In this document: in pieces, positions 1,706 through 62,398 of the stretch
How the letters are laid out: every line of letters starts with the position of its first letter
Numbering within the stretch: the first letter of the stretch is position 1
Virus record (IMG/VR): IMGVR_UViG_3300045988_176431
Location: 96,001 to 160,000 of that record
DNA: 64,000 nt
Reading direction: 5' to 3' (one strand)
Source of the DNA: a virus
Position numbers and translations under genes: made by a program
Notes under the pieces: model-generated
What the model saw: the letters and a program-made list of their open reading frames with translations, nothing else
The model's database searches: none
Told to the model about the DNA's origin: nothing

Positions 1706-1803
1706 ATAAATATGATATTTAATTATACACATAGTTTTCTCTTATCTATCTTTTTATGTTAGATTTGACAAGTTTTTAAGTAAATTTGAAAGGGGAATTG
1801 ATA

Positions 1804-3268
1804 ATGAGTCAAGAGAATTTATATTTAGAAGAATATACAAAAGAAATGACTGACTTTTTAAAGAAATCAAATCCTAATATTGATAAAAAGGAAATAAAGA
1901 AAATCGTAAAGAAAACGATAAAAGAAAGATTACAAGACCCAGAGGTTATTCTGGATAATAACTATACACACGAAACAAGAAAAACTCATTTAACATCAGT
2001 TCTTCATTGGGCTATGTTAAAGAATCCTATTATTGCAGGAAATGGTACATTTTATAAACAACATAATGTAGCCAGAAATCCAAATTCAGAAATGGTAGAT
2101 GACTTCTTGGATGATAGAAAGAAATTAAAAAAAGCAATGTTTGCAGTTGATGATGAAGCAAGTCATGCTTATAAAGATTTAGACTTAAAGCAAGGAAATA
2201 AAAAACGATTAGCAAATTCTTATTATGGTGGGTCAGGAGCAAAAACTTCAGCATTCTATTCAAAATGGAGTGGACCTGCTACAACAAAAAGTGCTCAATC
2301 AGTTATCTCAACAACAGAAACAGTATTTGAAGCATTTCTTGTGGATAATTTTATTTTTATTGATTTTAATGAATGTGTCACATGGATTGATACTGTACTT
2401 TCTGAAGATTATGAATTAGATGATTGGGTAGAAAGAATCAGTTTGGAAGATTGTCATAAACGACTTTCTAATAAGATTCTTGGTGTTACAGATGATATGA
2501 GTGAACTTCTCATGAAATATCTTTCATCTTTAACCGAAGAGGATTGGACACATCTTTATTATAAAAATAATTTAATAGAATTTACAAGAAGACATGAGAA
2601 AGTAAGAAAACTTCATGATTCTATCTTTAGTTCGATTCGTAATGATTATTATGAATTTTCAGTAAATAAAGATGGTGGATTTGAAAATGAATCCGATATT
2701 GCAAAAATCCCAACAGAAATGAGGGATGATATTTTAGGTGATAAAAAACCGGGAAAAGCATGGAATAAATTTGTATCTGTGCAAAAATTCTATGATCCAA
2801 ACAACGTTCCAGACACTATTAAAGAATACTTAGAAGAACTTTCAAATATTTATATGAAATATATATACGTGAGATTTCTTCATTTAGATAAAATCTATCG
2901 ATTAAAGAATTTTAATCGTGACGTTGTTACAGTTATTGATACAGATTCAAACATCTTATCATTAGATACATGGATGAAATTCTGTCAGACAGAATTAATG
3001 ACAAGTGATTATGGAAGAGAATATTTTGACAATGTATATATTGCAATTAATTCTATTACATACATCATTACATCAGTCGTTACTGATATTCTTTTATATT
3101 ATGGAGAATGCTCGAATGTAGAAGAAAGTCATCGACCAAGATATAATATGAAGAATGAATTCTTCTTTAGTAAATTAATTATTGCAAAAACAAAGAAACG
3201 ATATTTATCTCAGATATTACTTCGAGAAGGAAATCGACTTAAAAAACCGAAAACAGATGTTAAGGGTT
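1804..3268 (+). CDS. polB: family-B DNA polymerase, C-terminal half, exon 1
   Basis: Motif B KKRLANSYYG, motif C VIDTDSN, KKRY motif. ATG 1804 follows GAAAGGGGA. The ORF tail after 3268 (..NCGELSLCSNY*) is intron read-through. Confidence 0.85.
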
Positions 3269-3480
3269 TAACGTGTAAATTGTCAACGTTACATACAAGA
3301 CCCAATACTAAGCGATTAGTATTTAAAAACAAGGTGAATTGCGGGGAACTCTCGTTATGTTCTAACTACTAAACTAAGATGGTAACATACTTAGTGGCAA
3401 TGGGTAACTCCTAAGGTATAGTAAAAAGGTTAGAAATAGAGACAATTCGCAACCAAGTTATTTATTAAAAAGATATATTT

Positions 3481-3489
3481 ATATATTAT
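3481..3489 (+). promoter_or_regulatory. putative promoter core (ATATATTAT) inside the intron, upstream of the homing endonuclease
   Basis: Same 9-mer as other upstream regions; 24 nt upstream of ATG 3513. Confidence 0.3.
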
Positions 3490-3512
3490 ACTTCTAAAGG
3501 AAGGTGATTATA

Positions 3513-4346
3513 ATGAATAATAACGAAAAAATAAATCAAAAAGATATGAAGGAAATAATTAAGAAGATAAATTCTTCTATATGTTTTATTGATGAAAAAT
3601 TTAAGCAATTATATATTGATGAAGAATATATACCATATATAATTTCATCAACTGGTAGAATATTTAGTATTAATTATATGCATCAAAAAGGAAATGTACA
3701 TGAATTAAAAAGTAGAACAGATAAAGATGGATATAAATTAATATTAATACATTATAATCATAAAAATTATGGTTATCATATACACCGTTTAGTTGCTTTA
3801 ACATTTATCCCTATTCCTATTAAATATAGAAAGCAAGGATATAGTAGTAATGATTTACAAGTGAATCATAAAGATGGAAATAAATCTATAAATTGTGATT
3901 GGAATTTAGAATGGTTGACTTGTAAAGAAAATATTCATCATGCTTGGAAAAACAATTTAGCACATTCTATTGGTATATATAATGGAAATAGTGTATACTC
4001 TAATGAAGATATAGAAACAGTTTGTAAATTATTAGAATCAGACTATTCTATTAAACAAATTAGCAAAAAAATAAATGTTCCATATTACATAATATCTTTA
4101 GTATTAAATAAGAAAAATTGGCTACATATAAGTAATAATTATGACTTTAGTAATTATTCATATGGAAAGAAAAAAAGAAAAGATGTTATAAATGTGTGTA
4201 AACTGTTAGAGAAAGGTGAATATAGTATAAAAGAAATAAGTAAAATTTGCAATGTAAAAACTTCATTTGTAAGTGATATTTCATCTGGAAAAACATTTAA
4301 ATCAATATCTAAAGATTTTAATATAAATATATCTTGTAATAAATAA
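3513..4346 (+). CDS. HNH homing endonuclease (intron-encoded)
   Basis: HRLVA..VNHKDGNK..NLEWLTCKENIHH is an H-N-H motif. Two C-terminal HTH-like repeats (IKQISKKINV.., IKEISKICNV..). Lies in the P6 loop of the intron. RBS AAGGAAGG. Confidence 0.85.
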   Translation: MNNNEKINQKDMKEIIKKINSSICFIDEKFKQLYIDEEYIPYIISSTGRIFSINYMHQKGNVHELKSRTDKDGYKLILIHYNHKNYGYHIHRLVALTFIPIPIKYRKQGYSSNDLQVNHKDGNKSINCDWNLEWLTCKENIHHAWKNNLAHSIGIYNGNSVYSNEDIETVCKLLESDYSIKQISKKINVPYYIISLVLNKKNWLHISNNYDFSNYSYGKKKRKDVINVCKLLEKGEYSIKEISKICNVKTSFVSDISSGKTFKSISKDFNINISCNK

Positions 4347-4572
4347 AAGGTTCAACGACTATCGAAAGGATAGCATAAGAGAAATACTTATGTGAATAAC
4401 CGAGTAGAGTAGACCAGAAGTCTGGGTGCACGAAATTTGTGCTTTACAAAGTGCCTTGCATCTTCTATTTGGTAACAGAATATGAAGATGATGATATAGT
4501 CTATTCTCAATTGTAAAATTGAGGAGTTATTTATAACTCAGTATAACTTAACGAATTATACTAAATAAAAAG

Positions 4573-5231
4573 TTGACTTTAAGAAATCAGTTACATCAGA
4601 AACAGCATCGAAGTATTATATGAATATTATTAAAGAATATCTTCTTGAACCGGAAACTCCGTTATTAAAAGAAATGATTAATGAACTGCATGAATTTAAA
4701 AAACGTATCAAGAAATCTATTGAAGATGGCGAACGGATTTATTTACCAAATGCAAATGCAAAAGAACTTGGTGCTTATAAAGACCCAAGTACATCACAAG
4801 GTGTTCGTGGTGTATTAACATGGAATATGTGTGAGCCGGATAAAATGATTGAATTTCCTGCTAAAGTAAGTTTATTAAAAATGAACTTAGAAAATGAGGA
4901 ATCAATAGAAGATATGAAAGATAAATTCCCAAATCAATACAATGCAATTAAAGAGGGAATTTTTAATGATAAAACAGGTATTTTTATTAAAGAAAAGAAA
5001 GATAAAAAAACAGGTAAAAAAGAATTAAAGAAAACTGGTATGAAAGTGTTAGCAATCCCATCAAGTGAAACAATACCTGATTGGGCATTACCATATATCG
5101 ATTATAATACTATGGTAAATAATATATTAGCACCGTTTAAATCTGTTTTGGAAATCTTTAATCTTCCAGGAGTAGAAGAAGGAAAGACTGGAAGAAAATC
5201 AACAGGACTAAGTAATATTATAAAATTATAA
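4573..5231 (+). CDS. polB: family-B DNA polymerase, C-terminal half, exon 2
   Basis: Frame is open from 4569. The junction gives KG-F-DFKKSVTSE, matching T4-type KxMGLExxKSS. Exon 1 + exon 2 = 2124 nt, in frame. Confidence 0.8.
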
Positions 5232-6397: not shown

Positions 6398-7147
6398 TTG
6401 AGTAACTTAAACGAATTTAATGATTATGGGTATAACCCAAATGAAGTGGATAGTGAAATTTTTTTATCTGATATTCCACTTTCTTTAATGAAAGAAACAA
6501 TTCGAAATCAATTTGAAGAACCCCTCGAATATCAAAAGAATGATTATTTACAGACATTCTTTAATAAGTATGAATTCACAAAAGAGAATATGACAGAAGA
6601 TGATGAAGAAGAAGTTGAAGAATTATATTCAGGATTCATCTCTTTTATGGAAGAAATATTCAAAGAGTTCTTAGGTATCGGAATTCCGAATTTAGATGAT
6701 ATGGGTGAAGAAGAACAAGAAGAAATCATCCGATTTATTTATCGTTACTTTATTATTGATATTCGAAAGAATTTCGTAAATGTAATTTATAACTATATCA
6801 AAGAACGAAAAGAAAAAATTGCAGAGAGAATGGATAAGAAAAAAGATGTTACTTATCTATCTCTAAAAAAATATGTAGATGATGAAGATGAGATTGTTAT
6901 ATTATCCAATTTAGGAGAAGTAATCAATGATATCTTATCAGAAGAATTTACGATTGATGAGTTCTTTAAATATTCAAGAACTGACAAAAACGAATTAGAA
7001 ATTGATTTTGTATCAGATCGTTATGATACTTGTGATATTACAGGTAATTTTGTTTCTCACTATATCAATATGGTAGATGAGGAATTGAAGATGGAAATCG
7101 AATGTAAAGTTCGAAATAAAATTCTCAAAAAATATAAGAAAAAGTAA
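6398..7147 (+). CDS. hypothetical acidic protein
   Basis: 249-aa ORF with TTG start after GAAAGGAAA. Contains D/E-rich segments. Confidence 0.6.
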   Translation: MSNLNEFNDYGYNPNEVDSEIFLSDIPLSLMKETIRNQFEEPLEYQKNDYLQTFFNKYEFTKENMTEDDEEEVEELYSGFISFMEEIFKEFLGIGIPNLDDMGEEEQEEIIRFIYRYFIIDIRKNFVNVIYNYIKERKEKIAERMDKKKDVTYLSLKKYVDDEDEIVILSNLGEVINDILSEEFTIDEFFKYSRTDKNELEIDFVSDRYDTCDITGNFVSHYINMVDEELKMEIECKVRNKILKKYKKK

Positions 7148-8823: not shown

Positions 8824-10932
8824 ATGCCAACAAAAATGGAACCTGTTGTAAAAACAGAAGAATTAGTTCAGAAAAGTGAACGACAATTAGAATTAGAAGA
8901 AAGAAGAAAATTCTTTCATGGAGAACCGCTTTTGAATGTGGTAAAAAAAGATGAATTTCAAAAGAGAGTTGCTAAAGTATTTAAAGAAATTTCAGATGTT
9001 TTAGCATGTTCTTTTGGTGCATCCGGAGCACCAACAATTATTTCAAAATATCCATATTCTCATGTAACAAAAGATGGATTTACAATCTTTAAAAATATTA
9101 CATGTGATATTGAATGTGGTAGTATTATCGATTCTGTCATCGCTAATTTGATTGGAGATATTTGTGGAAGACTCAATTATAAAGTTGGTGATGGTACAAC
9201 AACAGCTATTGTTGCTACGAATGCAATTTATGAAGCTTATTATGAAAATAAAGAGTTCTTTGAACGTAATAATATTCTTCCACGTGATATTGTGAAAGAA
9301 TTTGCGAAACTTAAAGATCATATTGTAGAACAGATTAAGAAAGAAGCTGTTCATTTTACAGATGACAAAGAAGAGATGTTAGATACAATTGAAAAGATTG
9401 TACGAATCTCTAGTAATGGAGATGAAGAACTTACAAGAATGATTCGTGAGATTTATGATAAAATCGGATACCCATCAATTACAGCAGAACTTTCAAAAGA
9501 TGCTGTCACTAGATATCAAATTATTGATGGTTTCCGTACTGGTGTTATGCTTACAGATAAGATTTATGAGAATACAGATGATGGGTTCTTTGATTCGAAT
9601 AATCTTGATGTAATCATCTTTGATCATCGTGTAGATACAAAGGCTTATGAAAAAATTATTAAGCCTCTTAATATTGTCTGCAAAGCACAGGGAAGAGAAC
9701 TTATGGTAATCGCACCTACTTATTCAGATAATACAATTCAGAATGAAATCCGAAAAGACATTTTATCAGAGTATAAAGAAACAAGAAAGTCAAGTTTGAT
9801 TCTTTGTGTTTGTAAAGCACAGACTGCTAATGCAAAACGTTCTTTAGCAGATTTGGCGATGCTTTTAAATACAACGATTATTGATAGAAACTTTGCACAG
9901 GATATTATTGGAGATTGTATTAATAATTCAGCAAATCCATTTTATGCTTGTACTTATTTCAATTTCAATCGAGGAATTGAAAATCTTGCTTATATTAAAC
10001 AGAGTAAAGAGGGAGTAATTCAGGCAGTATTTGATGATTCCAATTCGGAATTGGAAGAATATCCAATGAATGAAAAATGCATCGATGTAGGTTTTACCGG
10101 AAAGGTTTCAGCAGGAGAGAATTATTCCATCTTCTCAGATTTCCATTATAATGAAGCCCTTTATAACAAGTTCTTAGATGATGCAAAAACAACAATGGAT
10201 GATTTAGTTGAAAAGTATGCAAAACTCGGAACTTTCAATTATGAAGTAACAGAAGCAATGAAGCGTTATAGTTCATTACAGTTGATGACTGCTGTAATTG
10301 AAGTAGGTGGTGATTCAGAACTTTCACAGGCAATGTTGAAAGATTCTGTTGAGGATGCAATTCGTGCGGCTGAATCTGCTTATAATAATGGATATATTCT
10401 TGGTTGCAATGTAACAACAATGAAAATTATTGAGGATATTGTTCATAATGAAATTCAATCAGAAATATCAAGTAGATTATATCGTATACTTTATAGTGGA
10501 TTATCTAAAGTATATGATACAGTTCTTTCAAATGCTTTTGGTAAACCAACGTTCAGATACAATGTAGATGAAAATACAAAGGAAGATTTCTTATCTTATG
10601 TAGAAAAAACGCTTGGAATCAAATCAGATATATTCAATATGGAAACATTGGATGAAACATTTGATATTTTGAATAAAGATATGAATGATTATTTTGATGC
10701 TCACCCAAATGCAGAACGTAGTACTGAATATTGGGATATTGATATAATCGGTGTTCTTAATAATCAAAGTGTTAAAAACTCAGTCGTATTTGATTTGAGC
10801 ACAAAAGAATTTAACAAGGATGTTATTAACAGTGCGGCAACTGATATTGAGGTATTAACTGCTGTTGTTGACCTTATGAGTATTCTGATTACAGGAAATC
10901 AGTTGATTGTTACCGGTAAACATAATTTCTAG
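8824..10932 (+). CDS. phage chaperonin, GroEL/Cpn60 family (enlarged, 702 aa)
   Basis: VGDGTTTAIVATNAI (GDGTTT ATP-binding signature) and HVTKDGFTIFKNI (compare TKDGVTVAKEI). RBS GAAAGGAAGG. Confidence 0.75.
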   Translation: MPTKMEPVVKTEELVQKSERQLELEERRKFFHGEPLLNVVKKDEFQKRVAKVFKEISDVLACSFGASGAPTIISKYPYSHVTKDGFTIFKNITCDIECGSIIDSVIANLIGDICGRLNYKVGDGTTTAIVATNAIYEAYYENKEFFERNNILPRDIVKEFAKLKDHIVEQIKKEAVHFTDDKEEMLDTIEKIVRISSNGDEELTRMIREIYDKIGYPSITAELSKDAVTRYQIIDGFRTGVMLTDKIYENTDDGFFDSNNLDVIIFDHRVDTKAYEKIIKPLNIVCKAQGRELMVIAPTYSDNTIQNEIRKDILSEYKETRKSSLILCVCKAQTANAKRSLADLAMLLNTTIIDRNFAQDIIGDCINNSANPFYACTYFNFNRGIENLAYIKQSKEGVIQAVFDDSNSELEEYPMNEKCIDVGFTGKVSAGENYSIFSDFHYNEALYNKFLDDAKTTMDDLVEKYAKLGTFNYEVTEAMKRYSSLQLMTAVIEVGGDSELSQAMLKDSVEDAIRAAESAYNNGYILGCNVTTMKIIEDIVHNEIQSEISSRLYRILYSGLSKVYDTVLSNAFGKPTFRYNVDENTKEDFLSYVEKTLGIKSDIFNMETLDETFDILNKDMNDYFDAHPNAERSTEYWDIDIIGVLNNQSVKNSVVFDLSTKEFNKDVINSAATDIEVLTAVVDLMSILITGNQLIVTGKHNF

Positions 10933-10948: not shown

Positions 10949-11725
10949 ATGGTCCCATTTCAAACATTAAGTGAATTCGTTGAAAATCCTTTTGGTATTT
11001 CTGATACTAAAAAACGAAATACACTAGAAGAAAAGTATGTAAAAATGAAATCAAATTCAAAATTCAAAGTAGAAGGATTTACTACGATTGATGATGATTA
11101 TTTGATTCATGTAATGGTTCCATCCGATTCGAATTCAAATCAATCTTATGATGTCGTTGTTCTTTTCTTTACTGATGATACTGTCGTAAAGAAAAGAACA
11201 ACCTTTTCAAATTATTATGTGAAGTTCTTTTCGAATTCACCTAGCTTTATTTATCAATATGCTTATCTTTATCGAGAAAATGGTTTCTTAATTGATTTTC
11301 TTTATGATAAGTTAGATGATAATTTTAGTTCTCAGGCACCAACAAAGTCAAATAAGAATATGGATTTATTTTATGATAAATCCATATATTGTGCTTCTCG
11401 TTTGATTCTTGATAATGGTGGTATTCTTTTAAGCAAACTTGGTATTATTACAAAGCATAAAAAGAATAAAGATAAATTCTTTCGAGATATTAAATCTTTT
11501 GAGAATATTAAAATGACATCGGAATTAAAATCTGTTGATAAAAAGATTAATAAAGAATTGGAAGAGAATAAAAAAATAAAGAGAAAAGAAAAGTCAAAAC
11601 AAAAGGCTCGTTCATCCAATAAGATTATGGCAAAGTCAAATACCTTGTCAAAGAATTCGAAACCAGGAATCACAAAAGTAAAAAAGAAAACAGGCAACAA
11701 AAAAGTAGTTTCTCGAAGAAAATAA
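10949..11725 (+). CDS. hypothetical protein with Lys-rich C-terminal tail
   Basis: 258-aa ORF with RBS GAGGTG. The last ~70 aa are highly basic. Confidence 0.65.
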   Translation: MVPFQTLSEFVENPFGISDTKKRNTLEEKYVKMKSNSKFKVEGFTTIDDDYLIHVMVPSDSNSNQSYDVVVLFFTDDTVVKKRTTFSNYYVKFFSNSPSFIYQYAYLYRENGFLIDFLYDKLDDNFSSQAPTKSNKNMDLFYDKSIYCASRLILDNGGILLSKLGIITKHKKNKDKFFRDIKSFENIKMTSELKSVDKKINKELEENKKIKRKEKSKQKARSSNKIMAKSNTLSKNSKPGITKVKKKTGNKKVVSRRK

Positions 11726-11741
11726 ATTTTATATAAAATTT

Positions 11742-11750
11742 ATATATTAT
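11742..11750 (+). promoter_or_regulatory. putative promoter core (ATATATTAT)
   Basis: Intergenic, 33 nt upstream of start 11783. Confidence 0.4.
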
Positions 11751-11782
11751 TTATTTGGAATAAAAAATATAAGAAAAAGGGG

Positions 11783-12610
11783 ATGAAATATTTGCCAGTT
11801 AAAAAATCTAATCCAGTAGAGGAAATTGATCGCTCAAAATTAAAGAGCAAAATCAATATCTGGAAACCAAAGAAATCTGAGATTATAGTGGAACAAGATG
11901 GAAATATTTTTGTCTGTCATTTTGACAAGATTTTCAATCAACCAAATCTCAAACCCTTAACTAAATTTATTATTAAAAAATCTAGTTATATCAACCAATT
12001 ACCAGTCATTACAAGGTATACAAACTTTTTCATGAATTGTTATGATACAGAGAATGACTTAGCAATGGCTTATTTGAAGATTAAGTATGCTCTTGATAAA
12101 GAGAGAGTATTTAATGAAACAAATACTTCTGCATTAATTGATATGATATATGAGATTCTTTTTACACCAAGGCTTTGTGAAAAGATTACTCGTATGGTAG
12201 AAGAAAATTACTTAGATGATATCGAAAAAGGGGATGGAAAGAAATATAAAAAGAATAAAGACTACTTAGAAAGTCTTGAATTCACCAATGAACATATTAA
12301 GATTCTTCTTAGAATCTCATTTGGTATTAAAATCATGTCACCGATTCTTTTTCATTATCTTACGATTAATAATATGAATAAGTTGGATAAAGACAGTGAT
12401 TTGATTTACAAGTTCTATGAAAGACTGTTTCCTTTGTTCTCCGGAAACGTCAATATGTTTAATAAGCTCTTTGTTTATTGTAAAACAAAAGTACTGGATG
12501 CATCTGCACATAACAGTACAATCTTTGAACAAAGAGAAATTTTTGGTGTAGATAAGTATTCAGTTATTGATAAATTTGTGAGAAAAGTAATTATCTCAGA
12601 AAACATGGTT
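11783..12610 (+). CDS. conserved-looking unknown protein, exon 1 of 5
   Basis: ORF is open to 12640, but the last 10 codons are intron sequence. The 5' splice site after U12610 is set by the P1 pairing. Start is ATG 11783 or TTG 11792. Confidence 0.7.
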
Positions 12611-12955
12611 AAAGTATTTGATCATGTAAAACCTCTCTAATTGCGGGGAACTCTCGTTAGGTCTTAACTACTAAACTAAGATAGTGATATACTTAGTGGC
12701 AAGGGGTAACTCCTAAGGTATAGTAAAAAGGTTAAGAATAGAGACAATCGACGCAGGGAAGTATCTCTTATGAGATATGGCTTCATCGACTAGGGAAAGA
12801 CTAATTTATATTAATTAGAATCGAGTAGGTCCAATTATAGGACGAAATGTAGGTGAGTATATATAATATATACAAAAATCCGAAACGGGAGGCATTGATA
12901 TATTTAGTAATAGAATATATTAATGAAGATATAGTCAGTGTAATATAAAAACATG
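12611..12955 (+). ncRNA. group I intron A (ORF-less, 345 nt)
   Basis: P1: ACAUGGUU (12603-10) pairs with GAUCAUGU (12620-27), U.G at U12610. P10: AAAUAC (12956-61) pairs with GUAUUU (12614-19). P3: CCUCUC pairs with GGGAGG (12887-92). P7: GACTA / TAGTC. Omega-G at 12955. Confidence 0.8.
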
Positions 12956-12982
12956 AAATACTTGTTCAATGAACACTGGGAT
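12956..12982 (+). CDS. micro-exon 2 (27 nt, KYLFNEHWD)
   Basis: Bounded by P10 of intron A and P1 of intron B. In frame with no stop. An alternative 3' splice site after G12964 would give 18 nt, also in frame. Confidence 0.6.
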
Positions 12983-13324
12983 AGACGTTTCATGTTCCAG
13001 TATAAAAACCTCTCTAATTGCGGGGAACTGTCTATAATGATTATTTACTAAACTAAGATGGTGACATACTTAGTGGCAAGGGGTAACTCCTAAGGTATAG
13101 TAAAAAGAATAATCATTGACACAATCGACGCAGCGAAGTATCTTATATGAGATATGAGTTCAACGACTATCGAAAGTATAATTATAAGAGAAATCTTATA
13201 ATGAATAAACGAGTAGAGTAGACTGATTTAATCAGGTGCATGAAATTGATGCTTTACGAAACGGGAGGTATTGATATATTTGGTAATAGAATATATCAAT
13301 AAAGATATAGTCTAATTAAAATAG
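12983..13324 (+). ncRNA. group I intron B (ORF-less, 342 nt)
   Basis: P1: ACUGGGAU (12975-82) pairs with GUUCCAGU (12994-13001), U.G at U12982. P10: GUGAAAC (13325-31) pairs with GUUUCAU (12987-93). Internal helix covaries (AATGATTATT / AATAATCATT). Omega-G at 13324. Confidence 0.8.
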
Positions 13325-13361
13325 GTGAAACAGAAAAAATACAAGGAGAACATTGTTGGAT
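13325..13361 (+). CDS. micro-exon 3 (37 nt, VKQKKYKENIVG + 1 nt)
   Basis: Bounded by P10 of intron B and P1 of intron C. No stop in frame. Confidence 0.6.
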
Positions 13362-13739
13362 CAATATTAGGTTCAACCAAAACCTCTCTAATTGCGGGGA
13401 ACTATCTATAATTAATAACTACTAAACTAAGATAGTGATATACTTAGTGGCAAAGGGTAACTCCTAAGGTATAGTAAAAAGGTTATTAATTGATACAATC
13501 GACGCAGCGAAGTATCTCTTATGAGATATGAGTTCAACGACTAGGGAAAGCTAGACAACCATATTGATAGAAATATCTAAAAGAATATAATATTCTGATG
13601 GTTTGATGTGAGTAGGTCCAATGATAGGACGAAATGTAGGTGAGTATATATAATATATACAAAAATCCAAAACGGGAGGTATTGATATATTTGGTAATAG
13701 AATATATCAATAAAGATATAGTCTACATTGAAAAATGTG
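13362..13739 (+). ncRNA. group I intron C (ORF-less, 378 nt)
   Basis: P1: GUUGGAU (13355-61) pairs with GUUCAAC (13371-77), U.G at U13361. P10: UUAAUA (13740-45) pairs with UAUUAG (13365-70). P9 GNRA hairpin ACATT-GAAA-AATGT. Omega-G at 13739. Helix covariation AATTAATAAC / GTTATTAATT. Confidence 0.8.
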
Positions 13740-13752
13740 TTAATAAAACGAT
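13740..13752 (+). CDS. micro-exon 4 (13 nt)
   Basis: TTAATAAAACGAT. The first 6 nt form P10 of intron C; the last 4 nt form P1 of intron D. Completes the codons F-N-K-T-I(..). Confidence 0.55.
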
Positions 13753-14223
13753 TAATTTAATAGTCGCAATGATATAAAGAAATTTATATCTGGACAAACC
13801 ATCCTAATTGCGGGGAACTCTCGTTAGGTCTTAACTACTAAACTAAGATAGTGATATACTTAGTGGCAAGGGGTAACTCCTAAGGTATAGTAAAAAGGTT
13901 AAGAATAGAGACAATCGACGCAGCGAATATGCTTTGAAATAAATAATAACATGTAAAGAAATAGGAGATAGATTAGGAATGACAAGAAATGCTGTTTGGA
14001 ATATTAAACAAAAAATAAATTAAACAAAATCAAAGCATAATGTTCAACGACTATCGAAAGTATAGGTTAAGAGAAATACTTAACTGAATAAACGAGTAGA
14101 GTAGACTGATTTAATCAGGTGCACGAAATTGGTGCTTTACGAAACGGATGGCGTATTATATTTGGTAACAGAATATAATACGAAGATATAGTCTAACCTA
14201 TGTAGTGATATATGGTATAAGTG
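13753..14223 (+). ncRNA. group I intron D (471 nt, with a decayed endonuclease remnant)
   Basis: P1: CGAU (13749-52) pairs with GUCG (13763-66), U.G at U13752. 7-bp perfect P10: UAUUAAA (14224-30) pairs with UUUAAUA (13756-62). P2 GNRA hairpin 13771-90. P3: CCAUCC pairs with GGAUGG (14146-51), a compensatory change. Omega-G at 14223. Confidence 0.75.
13943..14023 (+). pseudogene. remnant of a homing-endonuclease C-terminal HTH (26 codons) in the P6 loop of intron D
   Basis: Open frame IITCKEIGDRLGMTRNAVWNIKQKIN* at the position where the three intact HNH genes sit in their introns. Resembles their C-terminal HTH repeats. Confidence 0.45.
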
Positions 14224-14941
14224 TATTAAATTTCAGATGAATTATTTTCTTAAGGAGCAGTATGAGAAAACAATGACCGAGATTTCTAACACAAAAAATA
14301 GTGATGGATTATCCGGTCAAGATAAAATGGAAATGAATTTGACTAAGATTGATGAAGGTATCACAACTCTTAGTGAGTTCAATATTAAGAATTGTATTGA
14401 ACGTATTCAAAGAGAGATTGATATTCCAATCTCAGATGAAGAAATTCAATATTATAGGGACCATCATATTCCTAGCCCTATTCAGATTCAATTGGTATAT
14501 TCGTACTTTGCAGAATATTTTACGGATTATCGTGATTTGAACCTTTTAACAAGAAGAGATTATCTTCATTTATTACTTTTATTAAAGAAGAAACTCTTAA
14601 TTGAGGCTGGATATGATGAGAAAGAAAATGAATTTACAGATGCGATTCTTCCATATATTCTAACAGGAAATTTGGAAGAAAAAGTTTCTACTCGAATGAT
14701 TCGAAACAACAAGTTTATTTCAAAGATTGAAACGAATTATATGTATCAACAGTTAGTAGAAAAGAAGTATAAGCATCTGCAAGAATTAAAGAAAGACTAC
14801 ATATTACAAGTATTATCTTCGATTATCAATACGAATTTTACTTATGTAGTTTATGAGGAACCTGAAATGTTAGGAAAACCAATTGTTTATAATGAAGATA
14901 AAATCTCGGATGAACTCTTGTTTTTCTTAAAATGTATTTAA
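14224..14941 (+). CDS. conserved-looking unknown protein, exon 5 of 5
   Basis: Frame is open from 14192. There is no RBS before ATG 14237. The five exons total 1623 nt (541 codons), in frame with no stop. Confidence 0.7.
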
Positions 14942-15019
14942 TGTAAAGAAGAATTATGATAGAAAGTTTTTACTTCTATCATAATTCTTTATTTTATGGA
15001 GGAAAGGAATGAATGAAAT

Positions 15020-15742
15020 ATGTTATACTATGTAGACACAGAATTTACAAATTTAGGAAAAGATGCAGAACTTATTAGTATTGGAGTGATTAGTGAAAAA
15101 GGAGATTCCTTTTATGCAATTTTAAGTGATTATAATAAGGAAAAATGCTCTGACTTTGTAAAAGAGAATATTCTTCCAAAATTAGGAAAACCAGGAATTA
15201 GTGAAAGAATTGTAAGTAGTAAAAAATTTATACTTAAAAGTTACAATACTGTGGATAGTACTAAGAAAAATGTAAGAGAAAGATTACTTAAGTTTTTAAG
15301 TAGAATAAGTGATTATACCACTTTTGTTTCAGATGTTTGTCATTATGATGGTGTATTAATATTTGACTTACTGATGGATGAAAGAACAAAAGAATTACCA
15401 AAAAATATCAATCCGATGGTAATTGATATATCAACGGTTCTTTTCTATCAGAGATTTAGAGTAGAAAAAGAATTGGAGAAAAATGGTGTAAAAGAAAAAT
15501 CGACTGATACAAGTGAAATTGAAAAATATGCTTTTGATAAGACAAGAGAAGACCTTGTGGAAAATCTGGAAATATTTGGTACAAAAACTGAAAATAACGA
15601 AGATTACAAACATAATGCATTGTGGGATGCTTTTGTGATTTCATCAATTTCTAAAAAGTTCATATCAAATACAGTAAATCTTGCATTTGAGTCAGTATTG
15701 TATGGTGATATTATGGAATTAATCAAAGAAAGGATGAATTAA
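15020..15742 (+). CDS. DEDDh-type 3'-5' exonuclease (DnaQ-like)
   Basis: Exo I YVDTEFT and Exo III HNALWDA motifs. RBS GGAGGAAAGG. Confidence 0.7.
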   Translation: MLYYVDTEFTNLGKDAELISIGVISEKGDSFYAILSDYNKEKCSDFVKENILPKLGKPGISERIVSSKKFILKSYNTVDSTKKNVRERLLKFLSRISDYTTFVSDVCHYDGVLIFDLLMDERTKELPKNINPMVIDISTVLFYQRFRVEKELEKNGVKEKSTDTSEIEKYAFDKTREDLVENLEIFGTKTENNEDYKHNALWDAFVISSISKKFISNTVNLAFESVLYGDIMELIKERMN

Positions 15743-15743
15743 T

Positions 15744-16157
15744 ATGTCAGATCAATTGAAAAATTTAAAACCAATTACTGCTATGGAGGTTTCAGATAAA
15801 TTTAATATTATGATAAATAAACGATTGGAAGCATGTGGATGTGATTATGAATCTTTAATACGAATAGCAGCAACTATTATTGAAATAATATTCTTTGAAG
15901 AAGGAATATATAAAACGGTTGAAAAGATTCAATATCGAGATGGAATTTCAAAATATTTTGTAGTAATAAAAAAGTATAATAGCATGGGTTTTTCAAATAA
16001 TGATATCAAGATTTTAGAATTGATTGATGATTTATTAGGAGCAGATATTACTATAAATAAATTTAGATTTATTGGTGAAATCATTACTTTATTGAGAGGT
16101 GATGGATATACATCATATATCAAAGAAGATACTTTATATATTAAATTTAAACAATAA
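15744..16157 (+). CDS. hypothetical protein
   Basis: 137-aa ORF with RBS AGAAAGGATGAATTAAT-ATG. Confidence 0.6.
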   Translation: MSDQLKNLKPITAMEVSDKFNIMINKRLEACGCDYESLIRIAATIIEIIFFEEGIYKTVEKIQYRDGISKYFVVIKKYNSMGFSNNDIKILELIDDLLGADITINKFRFIGEIITLLRGDGYTSYIKEDTLYIKFKQ

Positions 16158-16180
16158 TCAAATTTAGGAGGTATAATAAA

Positions 16181-17377
16181 ATGGATGTAAAAAATTTTGA
16201 AAGACTCCGATATACAAATAATTTTTATAAGAGAATCATTGATCAGATGAGTGTTCAAATTATTGGTGCTGAAGAAACAGATAAAGAATTGATGGATTAC
16301 TTGTGTGAATCCATCAATAAGTTTGGATTCAAAACACTTATAGGAAATCTTGACCCGGATATAAAAAATACATATAGGGAGTCAAGTATTATAGGTTACA
16401 GCTTTTCTCAATTGTATAATGAAAGTTCTCTCACAGGTAATATCACAATGAATCTACTTACTATATTCATTTTAAATGATAAGACTCGTTGTGTGTATGA
16501 TAAAACAAAAAAAGCGGATGAACTTATTGTGCTTAATTCAAAAGACTATGAGAATGGTTTCCCTTCAAGTGAAGATATATATAATATTTTGAATAATGAA
16601 ATATTTTCTAAAGTAAATATTATTATACCTTGGAGTGGTGGCTGGGATTCTACTCTAGTATACTTAAAAGTATTAGGTACTAAATTATTTAAAAGAATTT
16701 CAGTACCGTTTTGTAGTTCAGAAAACTTACAAACACAAAAACAAAGAGAAGCACGTGATATGATATCAGAAGAATTAAAGAAGCTTATTGATTCTTTATA
16801 TAGTGAAGAACTTGAAAAAATCGATGATGTAGGTGATTGTGATATATGTGAAATTTTAGATAATGAAATAAATATCAATATTCCAGATGCAAGTCATATG
16901 CCTTCCATGCCTACAAGAAATCAACTACCAATGATATTTACTACTATGATGTATTCTTGTTCTTGTAGTAAAAATATAGTATTATACCCGATTATAAAAC
17001 AAGACAATTGGAGTAAAGATGATATTACTTCTTTTAAAGAGGGTTTCATTAATTTTTGTTCAGCGTATTCAGGAAATAATATTGCTGCTATAGTTGATTT
17101 TCCTCTTATTGAGTATGATAAAGTTGATGTTATTGAAGAAATATTTAAATTCGAAAAAGATTATGACATTTCTATTCATGACAAGATTTATACTTGTGAA
17201 TGTGGATATAATATTTGTAGTTATGATCCGTGTAAATCATGTAAAGTTGAACGTGAAGCTTTAGAATCTAGTAAAAATCCTGATGTTCATGAATATTTTC
17301 TTGAGAAGTATGAAAAAGAAGGACTTACGAAAAAAGAAGAATATTTTGAAAAATTACAAGAAGGGTTAAAAAAGTGA
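16181..17377 (+). CDS. PP-loop ATP pyrophosphatase, QueC-like, with ~150-aa N-terminal extension
   Basis: SGGWDS PP-loop (IIIPWSGGWDSTLV) and a C-terminal Cys cluster CECGYNICSYDPCKSCKVER, like the QueC zinc site. Confidence 0.55.
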   Translation: MDVKNFERLRYTNNFYKRIIDQMSVQIIGAEETDKELMDYLCESINKFGFKTLIGNLDPDIKNTYRESSIIGYSFSQLYNESSLTGNITMNLLTIFILNDKTRCVYDKTKKADELIVLNSKDYENGFPSSEDIYNILNNEIFSKVNIIIPWSGGWDSTLVYLKVLGTKLFKRISVPFCSSENLQTQKQREARDMISEELKKLIDSLYSEELEKIDDVGDCDICEILDNEININIPDASHMPSMPTRNQLPMIFTTMMYSCSCSKNIVLYPIIKQDNWSKDDITSFKEGFINFCSAYSGNNIAAIVDFPLIEYDKVDVIEEIFKFEKDYDISIHDKIYTCECGYNICSYDPCKSCKVEREALESSKNPDVHEYFLEKYEKEGLTKKEEYFEKLQEGLKK

Positions 17378-17410
17378 ATGAAATATTGATTCATATTGAT
17401 TCATAAAGTT

Positions 17411-17419
17411 ATATATTAT
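17411..17419 (+). promoter_or_regulatory. putative promoter core (ATATATTAT)
   Basis: Intergenic, 82 nt upstream of ATG 17501. Followed by a 15-bp hairpin at 17433-17467. Confidence 0.35.
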
Positions 17420-17500
17420 TTATATGAGTGATAAAATGAGTAGAAATTTAATATTTCTACTCATTTTCATATGAATAAAGAAAGGATGATGTAAAAATTT

Positions 17501-18208
17501 ATGAAAAAGACTTTAGTAAAAGTAACTGATTATCTCAATCATTTAAAGAAAGGAGAAATACTAGATAGTGTTCCGAAAATGATTTATGGTCAATTTAAAG
17601 ACTATGACCATGATGCAGATATAGCATTAATAAATGCAAGAGAGTATTACATACATCACTATGGTTTTTCTTTAATCACTAATTCATGGATAGAGCCATT
17701 GGCAAAATTTATTGGTGATGCTAGATGTCTTGAAATTATGGGAGGAACCGGATTTCTTAGTTATGTATTGAGTAAGAAAGGAGTAAATGTTATATGTACT
17801 GATGATTATTCATGGGAAGAATTACCAGATTCAAACGTTGATGGTTGGGTAGGTAATCATTTTTGTGATATAGAAAGGTTAGACGCAGTAAAAGCTGTAG
17901 AAAAATATGGAAAGGAAATTAAGTACTTAATTGTATCATGGGCATATATGGATGATACATTAGTTAGAGTATATAGAAAACTAAAGGAAATAAATCCAGA
18001 ATGCTTAATCATTTACATTGGAGAAAGACAAGGGGGTTGCTGCTCTTGTGATGAATTCTTTGATATTTCTAAGAATTCAATGGATGATATGTATAATTAT
18101 TATGATGATAAAGTATTCAGTAATGAAATTATTGAAATGACAAAAAAGTTAAATGATGGATTTACATCATGGATGTTAGTTGAAGATGTGATATTTTTTG
18201 TAAAGTAA
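17501..18208 (+). CDS. class I SAM-dependent methyltransferase
   Basis: Motif I CLEIMGGTGFLS and an acidic motif II VICTDD. Confidence 0.65.
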   Translation: MKKTLVKVTDYLNHLKKGEILDSVPKMIYGQFKDYDHDADIALINAREYYIHHYGFSLITNSWIEPLAKFIGDARCLEIMGGTGFLSYVLSKKGVNVICTDDYSWEELPDSNVDGWVGNHFCDIERLDAVKAVEKYGKEIKYLIVSWAYMDDTLVRVYRKLKEINPECLIIYIGERQGGCCSCDEFFDISKNSMDDMYNYYDDKVFSNEIIEMTKKLNDGFTSWMLVEDVIFFVK

Positions 18209-18225
18209 AGAAAGGAGATTATATT

Positions 18226-19335
18226 ATGAATCTTAACACAAATCCTGAAAATGCTACTTCTAGTATTAGTGACAATAAACTTCTTAAAGAGCATATTGAT
18301 TCTTTAAAGAAAACTATTGATGATTTGAATTTAAAAATAACATATCCTTTTGAATTCCAAGAATCAATTCGAAAATTCAATGCTGGTGAATCCCGTAAAA
18401 TATTTTCAAAGAATAATTCATCGATGCTGATTGAATCAAATAATTGTCGTGTTGTTTTTCATCTCTATGATGAGAATGTTGGAGTTATTTTGAGATCTGA
18501 TTTATGCTTATACATAAGGATCAATAATGACGATAGTAATGCTAGTGCTTATGAAAAATATATAACAGAAGCTTTTTATGTTTTTAAATCAAGTACGTTG
18601 TGTAATGCAGAATCATTTGTAATGAAAGTAGATAATACTCCATATGAGGAGTATAAAATTATTGGATTTTCATTTTGTGAAAATATATATTATTTAGATA
18701 AAAAACTTTTTTATGAGTTTTTAACATTTGAAAAATCATTATTTGATTTTCCTTATGTATTAAGTGATATTATCGAGCAGGTAGATATATTCGAAAGATT
18801 TGTCAGATCTATTTCTTATGAAAAAAGTCCTGACTATTTACAAAAGATAGGAAAAATACTAAATGTACCATGTGTTAAGTTTGTGAATGATCTTAGAACT
18901 ACTGAAACTATTAAAAAATTACACAAACGTTTTGGATGTATGGTTGATGAATATCTTCCACATTTCAACTCAGAAATTATTAAGAAACCATCAATTATTA
19001 CTGATTCTTCGAATGTAAAAAAATATATTGATGATGTATATTCTGTGATTCATTCAATAGGATATACTGCTGTTGAACTTAAAATTCCGTGTTTAATTTT
19101 TAAACATATTACCAAAGAAATGATTGATCAAATTTACCAGTGTGTTGACGAAGATGCTTCATTAACATATCATACTACTACTCATAAAGGCGAGTTATTT
19201 ATTACTTATGAAAGAATATATCATTCTAAATCTTTAGATAAAGTATGTGCTAGCATTGAAACTGACTTTATAAGAACTGTGAGAGTTTTTCTTGAAAGCC
19301 TGTTATGCACTTTAATAAATAAGGAGGAAGAGTAA
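18226..19335 (+). CDS. hypothetical protein
   Basis: 369-aa ORF with RBS AGAAAGGAG. Confidence 0.65.
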   Translation: MNLNTNPENATSSISDNKLLKEHIDSLKKTIDDLNLKITYPFEFQESIRKFNAGESRKIFSKNNSSMLIESNNCRVVFHLYDENVGVILRSDLCLYIRINNDDSNASAYEKYITEAFYVFKSSTLCNAESFVMKVDNTPYEEYKIIGFSFCENIYYLDKKLFYEFLTFEKSLFDFPYVLSDIIEQVDIFERFVRSISYEKSPDYLQKIGKILNVPCVKFVNDLRTTETIKKLHKRFGCMVDEYLPHFNSEIIKKPSIITDSSNVKKYIDDVYSVIHSIGYTAVELKIPCLIFKHITKEMIDQIYQCVDEDASLTYHTTTHKGELFITYERIYHSKSLDKVCASIETDFIRTVRVFLESLLCTLINKEEE

Positions 19336-21794: not shown

Positions 21795-23085
21795 AGTGCG
21801 TTATAATTTGACGAGCTTTATAAACTCATCTAATTGCGGGGAACTCTCGTTAAGTCTTAACTACTAAACTAAGATGGTAACATACTTAGTGGCAAGGGGT
21901 AACTCCTAAGGTATAGTAAAAAGGTTAAGAATAGAGACAATCGACGCATCGAAGTATCTTAATATTATTATATATTTATAAGAAAGGTGGTGAGATAATG
22001 ACGTCACATATTATAAAATTTAACAACATGGACAGTGATTATGTCATTTATGAAGATTGCACAATTATTAATATAAAAACTAATCATATTATGAAACATC
22101 GAATAAGTAAAAGTACAGGACGAGTGTATGTTCGTTTAACTAATAATAAAAAAAGAAAAGAATATAGATTATCAAGATTAATGGCTACATATTTTGTAGA
22201 AAATCCTGATCCAAAAAATAAAGTTGATGTTCATCATAAAGATAAAAATGTATTAAATAATGTACCAAGTAATTTGCAATGGGTTACAAAAGAAGAACAT
22301 TATTTGATACATAAAGGTGATAAAAATCATCCATTTTCTAGTGGTGAAAATCATAGTGGTGCTATATTAACTAATGATCAAGTACATGAAATATGTAAAT
22401 TGATTCAAGATAACATTATGTCTCAAAATGATATTGCGAGAAAATATAAAGTAATGCCACATGTTATTCATGAGATTCGTTTAAAACATAATTGGAATGA
22501 AATAACAAAATATTACGATTTTTCAAAATATTCGTATGGGAATAATTTTCTAAAAGATGATAAAGTAAAAGAAATTTGTTATCTGATTGAATCAAATAAG
22601 TATACATTGATGGAAATATCAAAAAAATCAAAAGTTACTTATTCTACAATTCTTGATATTTATCATAAAAAACGATATAAAAGACTAAGTGATAATTATG
22701 ATTTTGATAGATTCAATAAGTTAACAAGATATAGCAAAGGACTTAAGAAAAAAATAAATTTTTTAATTAATGAAGGAAAATCAAATAATGAAATTAAAAA
22801 TATATTAAAATTAGATAATTGTGCAAAAACGAATACTCTATTGTGTAGAGAAAGAAAGAAATCAAATCAATAAAAAAATAATATTAAGATATGAGTTCAA
22901 CGACTATCGAAAGTATAGCATAAGAGAAATACTTATGTGAATAAACGAGTAGAGTAGACTAGTATATATTATACTAGGTGCATGAAAATTGATGCTTTAC
23001 GAAACGGTGAGTGTATTATATTTGGTAACAGAATATAATATAATGATATAGTCTAAACTTCTATGGATAACATAGAGAATATTTG
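21795..23085 (+). mobile_element. group I intron with HNH homing endonuclease (beta' intron 1)
   Basis: P1: GCUCGUU (21788-94) pairs with GACGAGC (21810-16), U.G at U21794. 7-bp perfect P10: AAAUUAU (23086-92) pairs with AUAAUUU (21803-09). Omega-G at 23085. Same core as the other introns. Confidence 0.85.
21998..22873 (+). CDS. HNH homing endonuclease (intron-encoded)
   Basis: RLSRLMA..VHHKDKN..NLQWVTKEEHYLIH, with two HTH-like C-terminal repeats. RBS AAAGGTGGTG. Confidence 0.85.
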   Translation: MTSHIIKFNNMDSDYVIYEDCTIINIKTNHIMKHRISKSTGRVYVRLTNNKKRKEYRLSRLMATYFVENPDPKNKVDVHHKDKNVLNNVPSNLQWVTKEEHYLIHKGDKNHPFSSGENHSGAILTNDQVHEICKLIQDNIMSQNDIARKYKVMPHVIHEIRLKHNWNEITKYYDFSKYSYGNNFLKDDKVKEICYLIESNKYTLMEISKKSKVTYSTILDIYHKKRYKRLSDNYDFDRFNKLTRYSKGLKKKINFLINEGKSNNEIKNILKLDNCAKTNTLLCRERKKSNQ

Positions 23086-23343
23086 AAATTATACGGCTCG
23101 TAACGTAATTATTCCAGATCCATCTTTACATGATGGGGAAATTGATGTATCTTATCATACATTTAGAATCTTATTTAAATATAAGATTATTTATTATATG
23201 ATGAAGATTAACGACATACAGTTATCAAAAGCATATCATAAATGGAAGAATAGTTATAAGTTTAATCAACACATTTATGAAATTATGTTGTACATCTTAA
23301 AGAAAGAAAAACCAAGAATATTAATCAATCGAAATCCGACACT
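23086..23343 (+). CDS. RNA polymerase beta' N-half, exon 2
   Basis: L-NYTARNVIIPDPSLH.. matches YSGRSVIVVGPxL. Ends ..ILINRNPT(L), matching LLNRAPTL. Confidence 0.8.
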
Positions 23344-24479
23344 AATAGAAGTTTGGTGTCATTAAACTCTTCTAATTGCGGGGAACTCTCGTTAAGTCTT
23401 AACTACTAAACTAAGATGGTAACATACTTAGTGGCAAAGGGTAACTCCTAAGGTATAGTAAAAATGTTAAGAATAGAGACAATCGACGCAGCGAAGTATC
23501 TTCAATATATAAAAATACTATAGTAATTGAGAGGTGATAAATATTGCCAAAGAAAAGAAAGAAATTAAGTGAATTTCTTTTATCATATTATAAATTAATA
23601 GAAGAAAGTGATGAAAAAGAATTATGGAAAGATATTAATTTAGGAGACTTCCCAATATACCAAATAAGTAATCATGGTAGAGTTCGAAGGAAAGATAGTA
23701 AATTCATAATTAATCCTTTTCATTCTTATCGAAAAGATAATAATGGTAACTTTAGATATGATAGACCAACTTATCTCAGAGTTCAATTATATTATTACAC
23801 TAATGGGGTAAGAATGAAAAAACATATGGAAATAAGTAGGCTTGTTGCAATAAATTTTATACCTATACCAAAAATATATACTGATAAGGGATTAGATGAG
23901 AATTCTTTAGAAGTAAATCATATAAAAGGTGGTTATGAAATTTACAATAATTTTGTATCAAATTTAGAATTGTGTACAACAAAAGAAAATGTAAAAAAAT
24001 CAATTGAAACAGGTTTGAGACATTCACCGTATGGAGAGAATCATCATAATACATTTTTTACAGAATATGATGTGATGCAAATATGTGAATGTATTGAAAA
24101 AGGTTTTAATGCAAAGTATACTTATTATAATATTGATTTATCTGATAAATCAATAACATATGATCATTTTAAACAAAATTTTTATAGTATAAAATATAAG
24201 AAATCTTGGAAATTTATAAGTCAAAATTATAATTTTTAATTTATTGAAGATATGAGTTCATCGACTAGGGAAAGCTAGACAACCATATTGATAGAAATAT
24301 CTAAAAGGACTCCACATCCTGATGGTTTGATAAGCGAGTAGGTCCAATCATAGGACGAAATGTAGGTGAGTATATATAATATATACAAAAATCCGAAATG
24401 GAGAGCAATGATATATTTGGTAACAGAATATATTAATGAAGATATAGTCAAACTGTATAGAGATATACTAGATTTATTG
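23344..24479 (+). mobile_element. group I intron with HNH homing endonuclease (beta' intron 2)
   Basis: P1: GACACU (23338-43) pairs with GGUGUC (23355-60), U.G at U23343. P10: GAAUUUC (24480-86) pairs with GAAGUUU (23348-54). P9 GNRA hairpin GTATA-GAGA-TATAC. Omega-G at 24479. Confidence 0.8.
23544..24239 (+). CDS. HNH homing endonuclease (intron-encoded)
   Basis: WKDI..YQISNHGRVRR N-terminal motif; ISRLVA..VNHIKGG..NLELCTTKEN. TTG start after GAGAGGTG. Confidence 0.8.
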   Translation: MPKKRKKLSEFLLSYYKLIEESDEKELWKDINLGDFPIYQISNHGRVRRKDSKFIINPFHSYRKDNNGNFRYDRPTYLRVQLYYYTNGVRMKKHMEISRLVAINFIPIPKIYTDKGLDENSLEVNHIKGGYEIYNNFVSNLELCTTKENVKKSIETGLRHSPYGENHHNTFFTEYDVMQICECIEKGFNAKYTYYNIDLSDKSITYDHFKQNFYSIKYKKSWKFISQNYNF

Positions 24480-24762
24480 GAATTTCTATTCATTACTTTT
24501 AATGAAAATAAGAAATGTAAAAAAGGATGATACAGATTTTACATTATCGGTTCCACTTGCGATTTTACCGGGATTAAATGCCGATTTCGATGGAGATGTT
24601 CTTAATATGCTTGGTATGATGAATGAAGAATTCGTGAGAATGTTCAGAAAGTTTGACCCAATTAAGCGAATGATTATTTCAAGAGATACCGGACTTATCA
24701 ATAATTATTTTACAATTGAAAAGTCACAATTGATTGATTTATATCATTTTGCTACAGTATAG
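24480..24762 (+). CDS. RNA polymerase beta' N-half, exon 3 (catalytic loop)
   Basis: ..LPGLNADFDGDVLNML contains the universal NADFDGD Mg-binding motif. The gene ends about 40 aa later, consistent with a split beta'. Confidence 0.85.
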
Positions 24763-62027: not shown

Positions 62028-62398
62028 TGACAACACAGCGGCATAAATTTTATATTTATGAAAACCTATCTAATTGCGGGGAACTATCTATAATTAATAA
62101 CTACTAACTTATGATGGTGACATACATAAGGGCAAGGGTTAACTCCTAAGGTATAGTAAAAAGGTTATTGATTGATACAATCGACGCAGCGAAGTATCTT
62201 ATATAATAATATATTAAGATATGAGTTCAACGACTATCGAAAGTATAGGTTAAGAGAAATACTTAACTGAATAAACGAGTAGAGTAGACCAGAATATCTG
62301 GGTGCATGAAATTGATGCTTTACGAAACGGTAGGGATATTATATTTGGTGGCAGAATATAATATCATGATATAGTCTATTTAATTAAAAAATTAAATG
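62028..62398 (+). ncRNA. group I intron (ORF-less, 371 nt) in the helicase gene
   Basis: P1: CCGU (62024-27) pairs with GCGG (62038-41), U.G at U62027. Hairpin CATAAAT / ATTTATG. P3: CCTATC pairs with GGTAGG. Same core with compensatory changes (CTTATG / CATAAG). Omega-G at 62398. Restores ..IPV-V-VTAQQLNR. Confidence 0.8.

Follow-up and report, generated by a model that had tools for sequence, protein, structure and literature searches.

The window analysed here, a 64 000-nt stretch of a virus genome (IMG/VR record IMGVR_UViG_3300045988_176431, positions 96 001 to 160 000), contains at positions 12611-14223 four group I introns without ORFs, of 345, 342, 378 and 471 nt (1536 nt in total), located between the ORFs 11783-12640 and 14237-14941, which appear to be the two ends of one gene. 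All features of the locus are on the plus strand. Exon 1 of this gp226-like RNA polymerase subunit gene (11783-12610, 828 nt, codons 1-276) is the first ORF up to U12610, which pairs with G12620 in P1, and the alignment of homologues crosses its junction. Intron 1 (12611-12955; P10 guide 12612-12619, P1 guide 12620-12627, terminal G12955) is followed by exon 2 (12956-12982), the 27 nt of which encode KYLFNEHWD, matching the conserved KYKFNEHWD of uninterrupted homologues, and intron 2 (12983-13324; P1 guide 12994-13001, terminal G13324) is followed by exon 3 (13325-13361), with 37 nt that encode VKQKKYKENIVG plus one nucleotide, align without gaps with the homologues and are identical in a sister genome (L002, see below). 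After intron 3 (13362-13739; P1 guide 13371-13377, terminal G13739), exon 4 consists of only 13 nt (13740-13752, TTAATAAAACGAT) that complete the codon for F, encode N, K and T and provide two bases of the codon for I, restoring the invariant GFNKTIIKFQ block. Intron 4 (13753-14223) combines a P10 guide (13754-13762), a P1 guide (13763-13766), a P2 hairpin and the terminal G14223 with a 92-nt insertion in the loop of P6 (13938-14029), closed by the stem 13929-13937/14030-14038, and exon 5 (14224-14941, 718 nt including the stop codon) continues in frame with exon 4. When joined, the five exons form a stop-free reading frame of 1623 nt that encodes 540 amino acids followed by the stop codon. 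Recomputation thus gives the same exon lengths of 27, 37 and 13 nt, the same open frame of 1623 nt and the same 1536 nt removed as an earlier note on this DNA, which had counted 541 residues in the spliced protein, one too many.

The introns are visible in the DNA as four direct repeats (12628-12799, 13005-13176, 13379-13550 and 13795-13966), the later ones 79-91% identical to the first, and the repeat units share their 3' halves as well, with a mean column identity of 65% over the common core. All core strings that the earlier note had quoted for its four ribozyme copies are present in each of the four, and a 13-mer from the core occurs eight times in the window, compared with 0.43 occurrences expected by chance. 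Inside the four introns, there is no plus-strand ORF of 60 or more amino acids and hence no ORF for a homing endonuclease. A reading of the sequence upstream of ATG 14237 reveals no run resembling a Shine-Dalgarno motif, in agreement with the earlier note. No plus-strand terminator was detected within the region, promoter-like matches occur in it at the chance level, and a terminator-like hairpin follows exon 5 (14949-14989). The 92-nt insertion in P6 of intron 4 encodes a peptide resembling a helix-turn-helix (HTH) and is missing from the orthologous intron of L002, which is 382 nt long; a comparison with the HNH genes of the window, of which it might have been a remnant, showed no significant similarity.

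The spliced protein matches PHROG 25005, 'RNA polymerase', in a single stretch (residues 41-539, E = 1e-20), and a database search with this protein retrieved 497 homologues, many of them uninterrupted proteins of 520-620 amino acids that cover 96-99% of the query. In a MAFFT alignment with about 60 such uninterrupted homologues, which addresses the colinearity proposed as a check in the earlier note, residues 255-325 are free of gaps across all four junctions; for example, the junction block VIISENMV/KYLFNEHWD/VKQKKYKENIVG/FNKT/IIKFQ aligns with VIISENMVKYQFPEHWDAKQKKYKENIIGFNKTIIKFQ in homologue P0001. The junctions at the predicted sites are exactly those that restore colinearity, which supports the interpretation of the two ORFs as parts of one gene. 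A homologue from a human gut metagenome is a single uninterrupted ORF with the same neighbouring genes. The profile of the family matches chain A of the PDB entry 7S01 (E = 1.2e-19) over residues 19-162 and 166-461 of the 464 in the chain; this chain is AR9 gp226, the promoter-specificity subunit of the non-virion RNA polymerase (nvRNAP) (PMC9209446), which is homologous to phiKZ gp68 (PMC7598289). By homology, therefore, the interrupted gene is predicted to encode the fifth subunit, for promoter specificity, of the multisubunit nvRNAP of a jumbo phage. All six sites at which introns are known in this lineage map to one 66-residue segment of the protein, which ranks 1 of 475 in conservation. 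Megablast of positions 11000-15800 against the phage collection produced no match, tblastn only a weak one, to Bacillus phage BpSp, and a scan of metagenomes four relatives.

The assignment of the four elements to group I introns does not follow from a routine Rfam scan. Each intron matches the full RF00028 model (positions 1-253), with scores of 37.4 bits for intron 1 when searched alone (E = 3.6e-8), 43.6 bits for intron 2 (E = 2.5e-9, the match ending at 13324), 34.4 bits for intron 3 (E = 1.4e-6) and 37.3 bits for intron 4 (E = 1.8e-7), but all these scores are below the curated gathering score of 50 bits. Accordingly, a scan of the whole window at the default gathering threshold reported nothing, and a relaxed scan with E-value reporting detected introns 2, 3 and 4 and missed intron 1, so that the RF00028 search suggested in the earlier note has a mixed outcome, a full-length match in all four cases and an empty default scan. 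The low scores result from about 60 nt of extra structure in P5 and from 60-130 nt between P7 and the 3' strand of P3 that the model treats as insertions. These 60-130 nt, which separate GACUA from AAACGG, fold into two or three hairpins and belong to two interchangeable types of module; as extra P7.1/P7.2 hairpins occupy this place in the phage-type introns of subgroup IA, the family, which also has an extended P5 domain, may be described as IA-like.

Because the RF00028 scores are below the cut-off, the structure was tested directly by covariation, in an alignment of 24 family members collected in the window and at related loci, with the variable module and the ORFs removed and with helices P3, P4, P5, P5a-c, P6, P6a, P7 and P8 placed on the alignment. 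Among the 1531 cells, 96.3% contain standard pairs, compared with 33-45% after a shift of the partners by 1-3 columns, and compensatory changes, with both sides altered, are seen in 29 of the 65 pairs. Covariation scores 0.340, compared with no more than 0.076 for slid partners, and none of 500 shuffles reached the observed values. The signal comes mostly from P3, P5a, P5b and P8, with P4 and P7 being invariant and hence uninformative; the core from P3 to P8, including the P3/P7 pseudoknot, is backed by covariation. All core helices pair in all four introns of the array, and P1, P3 to P6, the peripheral hairpins and P8 also emerge when intron 1 and its flanks are folded by minimum free energy without constraints (z = -3.2). 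The full-model matches, the covariation across the family and the colinearity with homologues jointly support the original identification of four group I introns devoid of ORFs.

The splice sites were located with a script that searches the first 40 intron bases for a G that pairs with the last U of the exon and then extends both helices. For introns 1, 2, 3 and 4, respectively, the pairs at the 5' splice site are U12610.G12620, U12982.G12994, U13361.G13371 and U13752.G13763; P1 consists of 8, 8 and 7 bp in the first three introns and of 4 bp with the exon plus 2 intronic bp in intron 4, and P10 consists of 8, 7, 6 and 9 bp. All four introns thus have a U.G pair at the 5' splice site and a G as the last base, and the script reproduces each of the eight boundary positions of the earlier note, whose P10 lengths of 6, 7, 6 and 7 bp hold for introns 2 and 3 and are slightly low for introns 1 and 4. 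For intron 4, the Rfam alignment ends at G14215, but a 3' splice site at this position would break the reading frame and the GFNKTIIKFQ block; only G14223, with the 9-bp P10, preserves both the frame and the conserved peptide. The guides in the array are site-specific: combinations of guides with non-cognate exons yield P1 and P10 pairings far below the cognate 8 + 8, 8 + 7, 7 + 6 and 4 + 9 bp. A single guide common to the whole intron family was rejected as a possibility because the guides are diverse and site-specific. In exon 4, nucleotides 1-6 participate in P10 of intron 3 and nucleotides 10-13 in P1 of intron 4. Thus, 10 of the 13 nt are paired, in accord with the description of this exon as nearly consumed by the two helices; the pairings do not overlap, however, so that a fixed order of splicing, which had been thought to follow, is not required by the sequence.

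Natural alleles of the gene provide independent evidence on the boundaries. An ENA contig that was reached via protein P0059 (L001), 96.7% identical to the window, has exons 1 and 2 contiguous in the DNA, with intron 1 absent exactly at the predicted junction and three synonymous differences flanking the vacant site. The sister genome L002 (IMG/VR contig 3300045988_176405, 249 kb), 97-98% identical to the window, carries this gene with six introns (340, 342, 376, 382, 405 and 420 nt), separated by internal exons of 27, 37, 13, 19 and 81 nt, and its spliced protein is identical to that of the window at 538 of the 540 residues. The window represents the intron-less allele at the two additional sites: at vacant site 5 (14242-14243, CAGATGAAT/TATTTTC), removal of the 405-nt intron of L002 yields the exact window sequence, and vacant site 6 (14323-14324, CAAGAT/AAAATGG) is occupied by the 420-nt intron in L002. 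Intron-less alleles accordingly exist at sites 1, 5 and 6, and excision restores a gene that is colinear with the homologues. The spliced coding sequences of the window and L002 differ at 27 nucleotides, 24 of which are synonymous changes, which indicates that selection acts on the spliced product in each of the two genomes; five of the 27 differences are within 10 nt of site 6. Orthologous introns of the two genomes are 91-99% identical, with 99% for intron 3, compared with 64-84% for the paralogous introns, so that the array does not stem from a recent tandem duplication. A more distant homologue (L008, with 51% protein identity) contains a single intron of the same family in the same codon phase as intron 4. 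Taken together, the alleles back the predicted boundaries and support the view that the array is real and unusually dense.

The family is not confined to this gene. There are exactly eight copies in the window. Of the other four, one interrupts a gene for a divergent family B DNA polymerase, two an RNAP beta'-like gene and one a gene for a DnaB-like helicase. HNH_3/NUMOD4/HTH proteins are encoded by three of these sibling introns (3504-4346, 21998-22873 and 23544-24239), and L002 contains ORF-less versions of at least two of these three, along with further tandem arrays of five, three and two introns. A 15-nt core motif is found in about 40 other IMG/VR contigs, once per stretch. Within the array, the strands of P3 and P7 are identical from one copy to its neighbour, and so is P8 in introns 2 and 3.

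The combined evidence is best explained by a single gene interrupted by four self-splicing group I introns, with micro-exons of 27, 37 and 13 nt, in an array that is still changing, a reading to which we assign a probability of about 0.9. Judging from the sequence, the internal guide of each intron would form two helices, P1 with the final 4-8 nt of the exon upstream, where the U.G pair marks the point of cleavage, and P10 with the initial 6-9 nt of the exon downstream, and excision would proceed by the standard two-step transesterification initiated by guanosine. Splicing most likely would occur during transcription, in the 5' to 3' direction, to yield the 1623-nt mRNA. The micro-exons appear to be long enough for this process because P10 and the next P1 use non-overlapping bases.

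A different account accepts the introns as real and makes their excision dependent on a protein that assists folding in the crowded array, for example, an HNH protein of the family acting like a maturase or an RNA chaperone of the host. The three HNH/NUMOD4 intron proteins encoded in the window are potential sources of such an activity, and the adjacent copies with identical P3 and P7 strands are prone to mispairing, which seems a more plausible hazard for the array than the order of splicing: pairing between copies could lead to misfolding or exon skipping, and a host or phage factor may be needed. We regard an obligatory protein cofactor as rather unlikely, although none of the present results speaks directly against it; self-splicing in vitro is a property of phage IA introns, those of T4 and Twort among them, and L002 has at least two of the ORF-containing introns of the window in ORF-less form.

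Decay of at least one copy into a ribozyme that no longer splices, which would turn the gene into a pseudogene or leave a separate N-terminal and C-terminal fragment to assemble in the absence of the 26 residues of the micro-exons, is considerably less probable still. The sub-threshold Rfam scores, with intron 1 missed in two scans, and the 92-nt insertion and short P1 (4 bp with the exon) of intron 4 are compatible with decay, and RNA polymerase genes of jumbo phages are often naturally split (PMC7598289). Against this possibility, no core helix is disrupted in any of the four copies, intron 1 shows a compensatory change in P6, the micro-exons are in frame and encode part of the top-ranking conserved block, the excess of synonymous differences from L002 extends to the exons downstream of the introns, and ATG 14237 lacks a ribosome-binding site. 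An assembly artefact, with reads from dispersed copies of a repeated intron joined incorrectly, might be suspected given that the window is rich in repeats, contains eight members of one family, is not matched in the reference phage collection and probably comes from a metagenome assembly, but is hardly credible because identity among the copies is only 64-84%, the unique guide of each fits its own flanking exon, and the independent assemblies L001 (ENA) and L002 (IMG/VR) have the same order of exons and introns.

The array probably grew as one family member after another inserted into the part of the gene that is most conserved, and the number of introns in this gene varies from three to six among close relatives. 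One tentative and, on balance, improbable route is a local, guide-directed spread of one ORF-less lineage, for example, by reverse splicing into G-R-A-U sequences nearby in the same transcript, followed by recombination. The guides of introns 2, 3, 5 and 6 start with GUUC and their insertion sites follow GGAU or GAAU, a combination found in none of the 21 copies outside this gene, although the pattern was noticed post hoc (Fisher p ~8.5e-4). In addition, intron 6 has the P5a variant and the peripheral module of intron 2, and its guide can still form 7 bp with the exon at site 2. Homing assisted by the HNH enzymes of the family is an equal option.

Crowding of related group I introns in a phage gene is not without precedent. 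The gene orf142 of Staphylococcus phage Twort reportedly contains several related ORF-less group I introns close together. The Twort gene resembles the present one in this crowding of ORF-less relatives, which is what the comparison covers. Here, four introns, and six in L002, are inserted within 78-177 nt of coding sequence and the exons shrink to 13 nt.

Multi-intron genes and intron-saturated genomes of gut phages have already been described (PMC7886860, PMC12880540, PMC11878797). Zeta crAss-like phages have a capsid gene in five fragments and up to 14 introns per genome (PMC7886860), and the Jug jumbo phages carry on average 18.5 group I introns per genome, with nrdD in four fragments and some of the splicing confirmed from metatranscriptomes (PMC12880540). 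As in the present case, these are AT-rich genomes of gut phages with core genes full of group I introns and at least four fragments per gene; in contrast to it, the examples given for them are ORF-sized fragments that mostly are separated by endonuclease-bearing insertions, and the passages considered make no mention of micro-exon arrays of ORF-less introns. In another jumbo phage, PhiPA3, an RNA polymerase gene is interrupted by a group I intron that encodes the endonuclease gp210 (PMC11620839); the type of host gene is the same, but PhiPA3 has a single ORF-bearing intron, the endonuclease of which targets the RNAP subunit gene of a jumbo phage in the course of competition between phages, whereas the array described here consists of four ORF-less introns. 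The host protein itself is a near full-length match to AR9 gp226/phiKZ gp68 (PDB 7S01, 7UM0, 7UM1; E = 1.2e-19), and differs from AR9 gp226 in length (about 540 compared with 464 amino acids) and in the low sequence identity; promoter specificity, and any dependence on uracil-containing DNA, would here be predictions from homology.

In mitochondrial genes, self-splicing introns are known to flank exons that range in length from a few nucleotides to a few tens, as seen in the MFannot analysis (PMC10352661) and in the cox1 micro-exon of placozoans (PMC5436844), which indicates that very short exons are compatible with splicing. The mitochondrial introns are organellar and often protein-assisted, whereas the present array belongs to a bacteriophage and involves one recently proliferating family. 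An incomplete search of the literature yielded no phage array in which ORF-less introns are separated by comparably short exons. The array is, thus, an extreme form of a known phenomenon, and the initial characterization of four introns within 78 nt of coding sequence as exceptional needs to be tempered in view of the known intron-rich phages and of the six introns in L002.

The array comes across as a limit case of gene fragmentation that is kept by selection, with exons as short as 13 nt between ribozymes of 340-470 nt, and the gene that is fragmented to this extent is one needed for the phage's own transcription. For genome annotation, it carries a warning, in that default Rfam thresholds combined with ORF callers miss the four introns and yield two unrelated 'hypothetical proteins'. 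The existence of alleles with three to six introns in genomes that are 97% identical makes this gene a tractable subject for studying how ORF-less group I introns reach new sites and how tandem, nearly identical ribozymes avoid mutual misfolding. Should the local guide-directed spread prove true, no intron array so far described in a virus would be as dense as this one, and the genomes that differ at sites 1, 5 and 6 would constitute a natural system for addressing the long-unproven RNA-mediated transposition of group I introns.

The group I intron family of the tandem array, in which four ORF-less copies interrupt the gene for a gp226-like RNA polymerase promoter-specificity subunit, also occupies other genes of the window. 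The gene for a divergent family B DNA polymerase (1786-3372 / 4620-5231) is split by a group I intron of this family at 3335-4501, which contains an ORF for a 280 aa HNH_3/HTH protein (3504-4346); the same intron is present in the sister genome (locus L011), minus ~800 nt of this ORF. The RNAP beta'-like gene contains two introns of the family, at 21795-23060 and 23344-24460, each with one HNH_3 or NUMOD4 ORF (21998-22873, 23544-24239), and its exons span 20884-~21794, ~23198-23343 and 24502-24762, with the NADFDGD motif encoded in the last one. At L009, the sister genome carries an ORF-less version of the first of these introns, as well as a third intron, not found in the window, immediately upstream of NADFDGD. 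The eighth copy of the family, also ORF-less and with approximate bounds (~62050-62400), interrupts the DnaB-like helicase gene (60790-62046 / 62547-62885); here, the P1 call is weak.

Two features of the gene neighborhood of the array can be noted. A gene for a GroEL-like chaperonin (Cpn60_TCP1, 702 aa; 8824-10932) is located two genes upstream, a placement shared with the human-gut relatives L016-L019. A segment of ~3.1 kb (16170-19313) that includes a QueC-like gene (16181-17377) is missing from the sister locus L009, which is otherwise 94-99% identical.

Within the array, the P6 loop of intron 4 carries a 92-nt insertion (13938-14029) that is lacking in the orthologue from the sister genome (L002). 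The insertion encodes an HTH-like peptide, ITCKEIGDRLGMTRNAVWNIKQKIN, and may be an endonuclease remnant; no significant similarity was detected between it and the HNH ORFs of the window.

Tandem arrangement of this family is found again in the sister genome (IMGVR_UViG_3300045988_176405), where five copies spaced by 375-463 nt follow one another in L010 (1-3019), in a host gene that lies outside the window. Between the fourth and fifth copies, the stretch from the P7 end of the former to the core motif of the latter measures only 66 nt, leaving room for a candidate exon of ~10 nt, CCAGGCACAT. In the relative contig L001, the site 2 intron (6627-6901) combines the P1 and guide of intron 2 with a peripheral module of the type present in introns 1 and 3 of the window, a combination which indicates that intron copies have exchanged modules.
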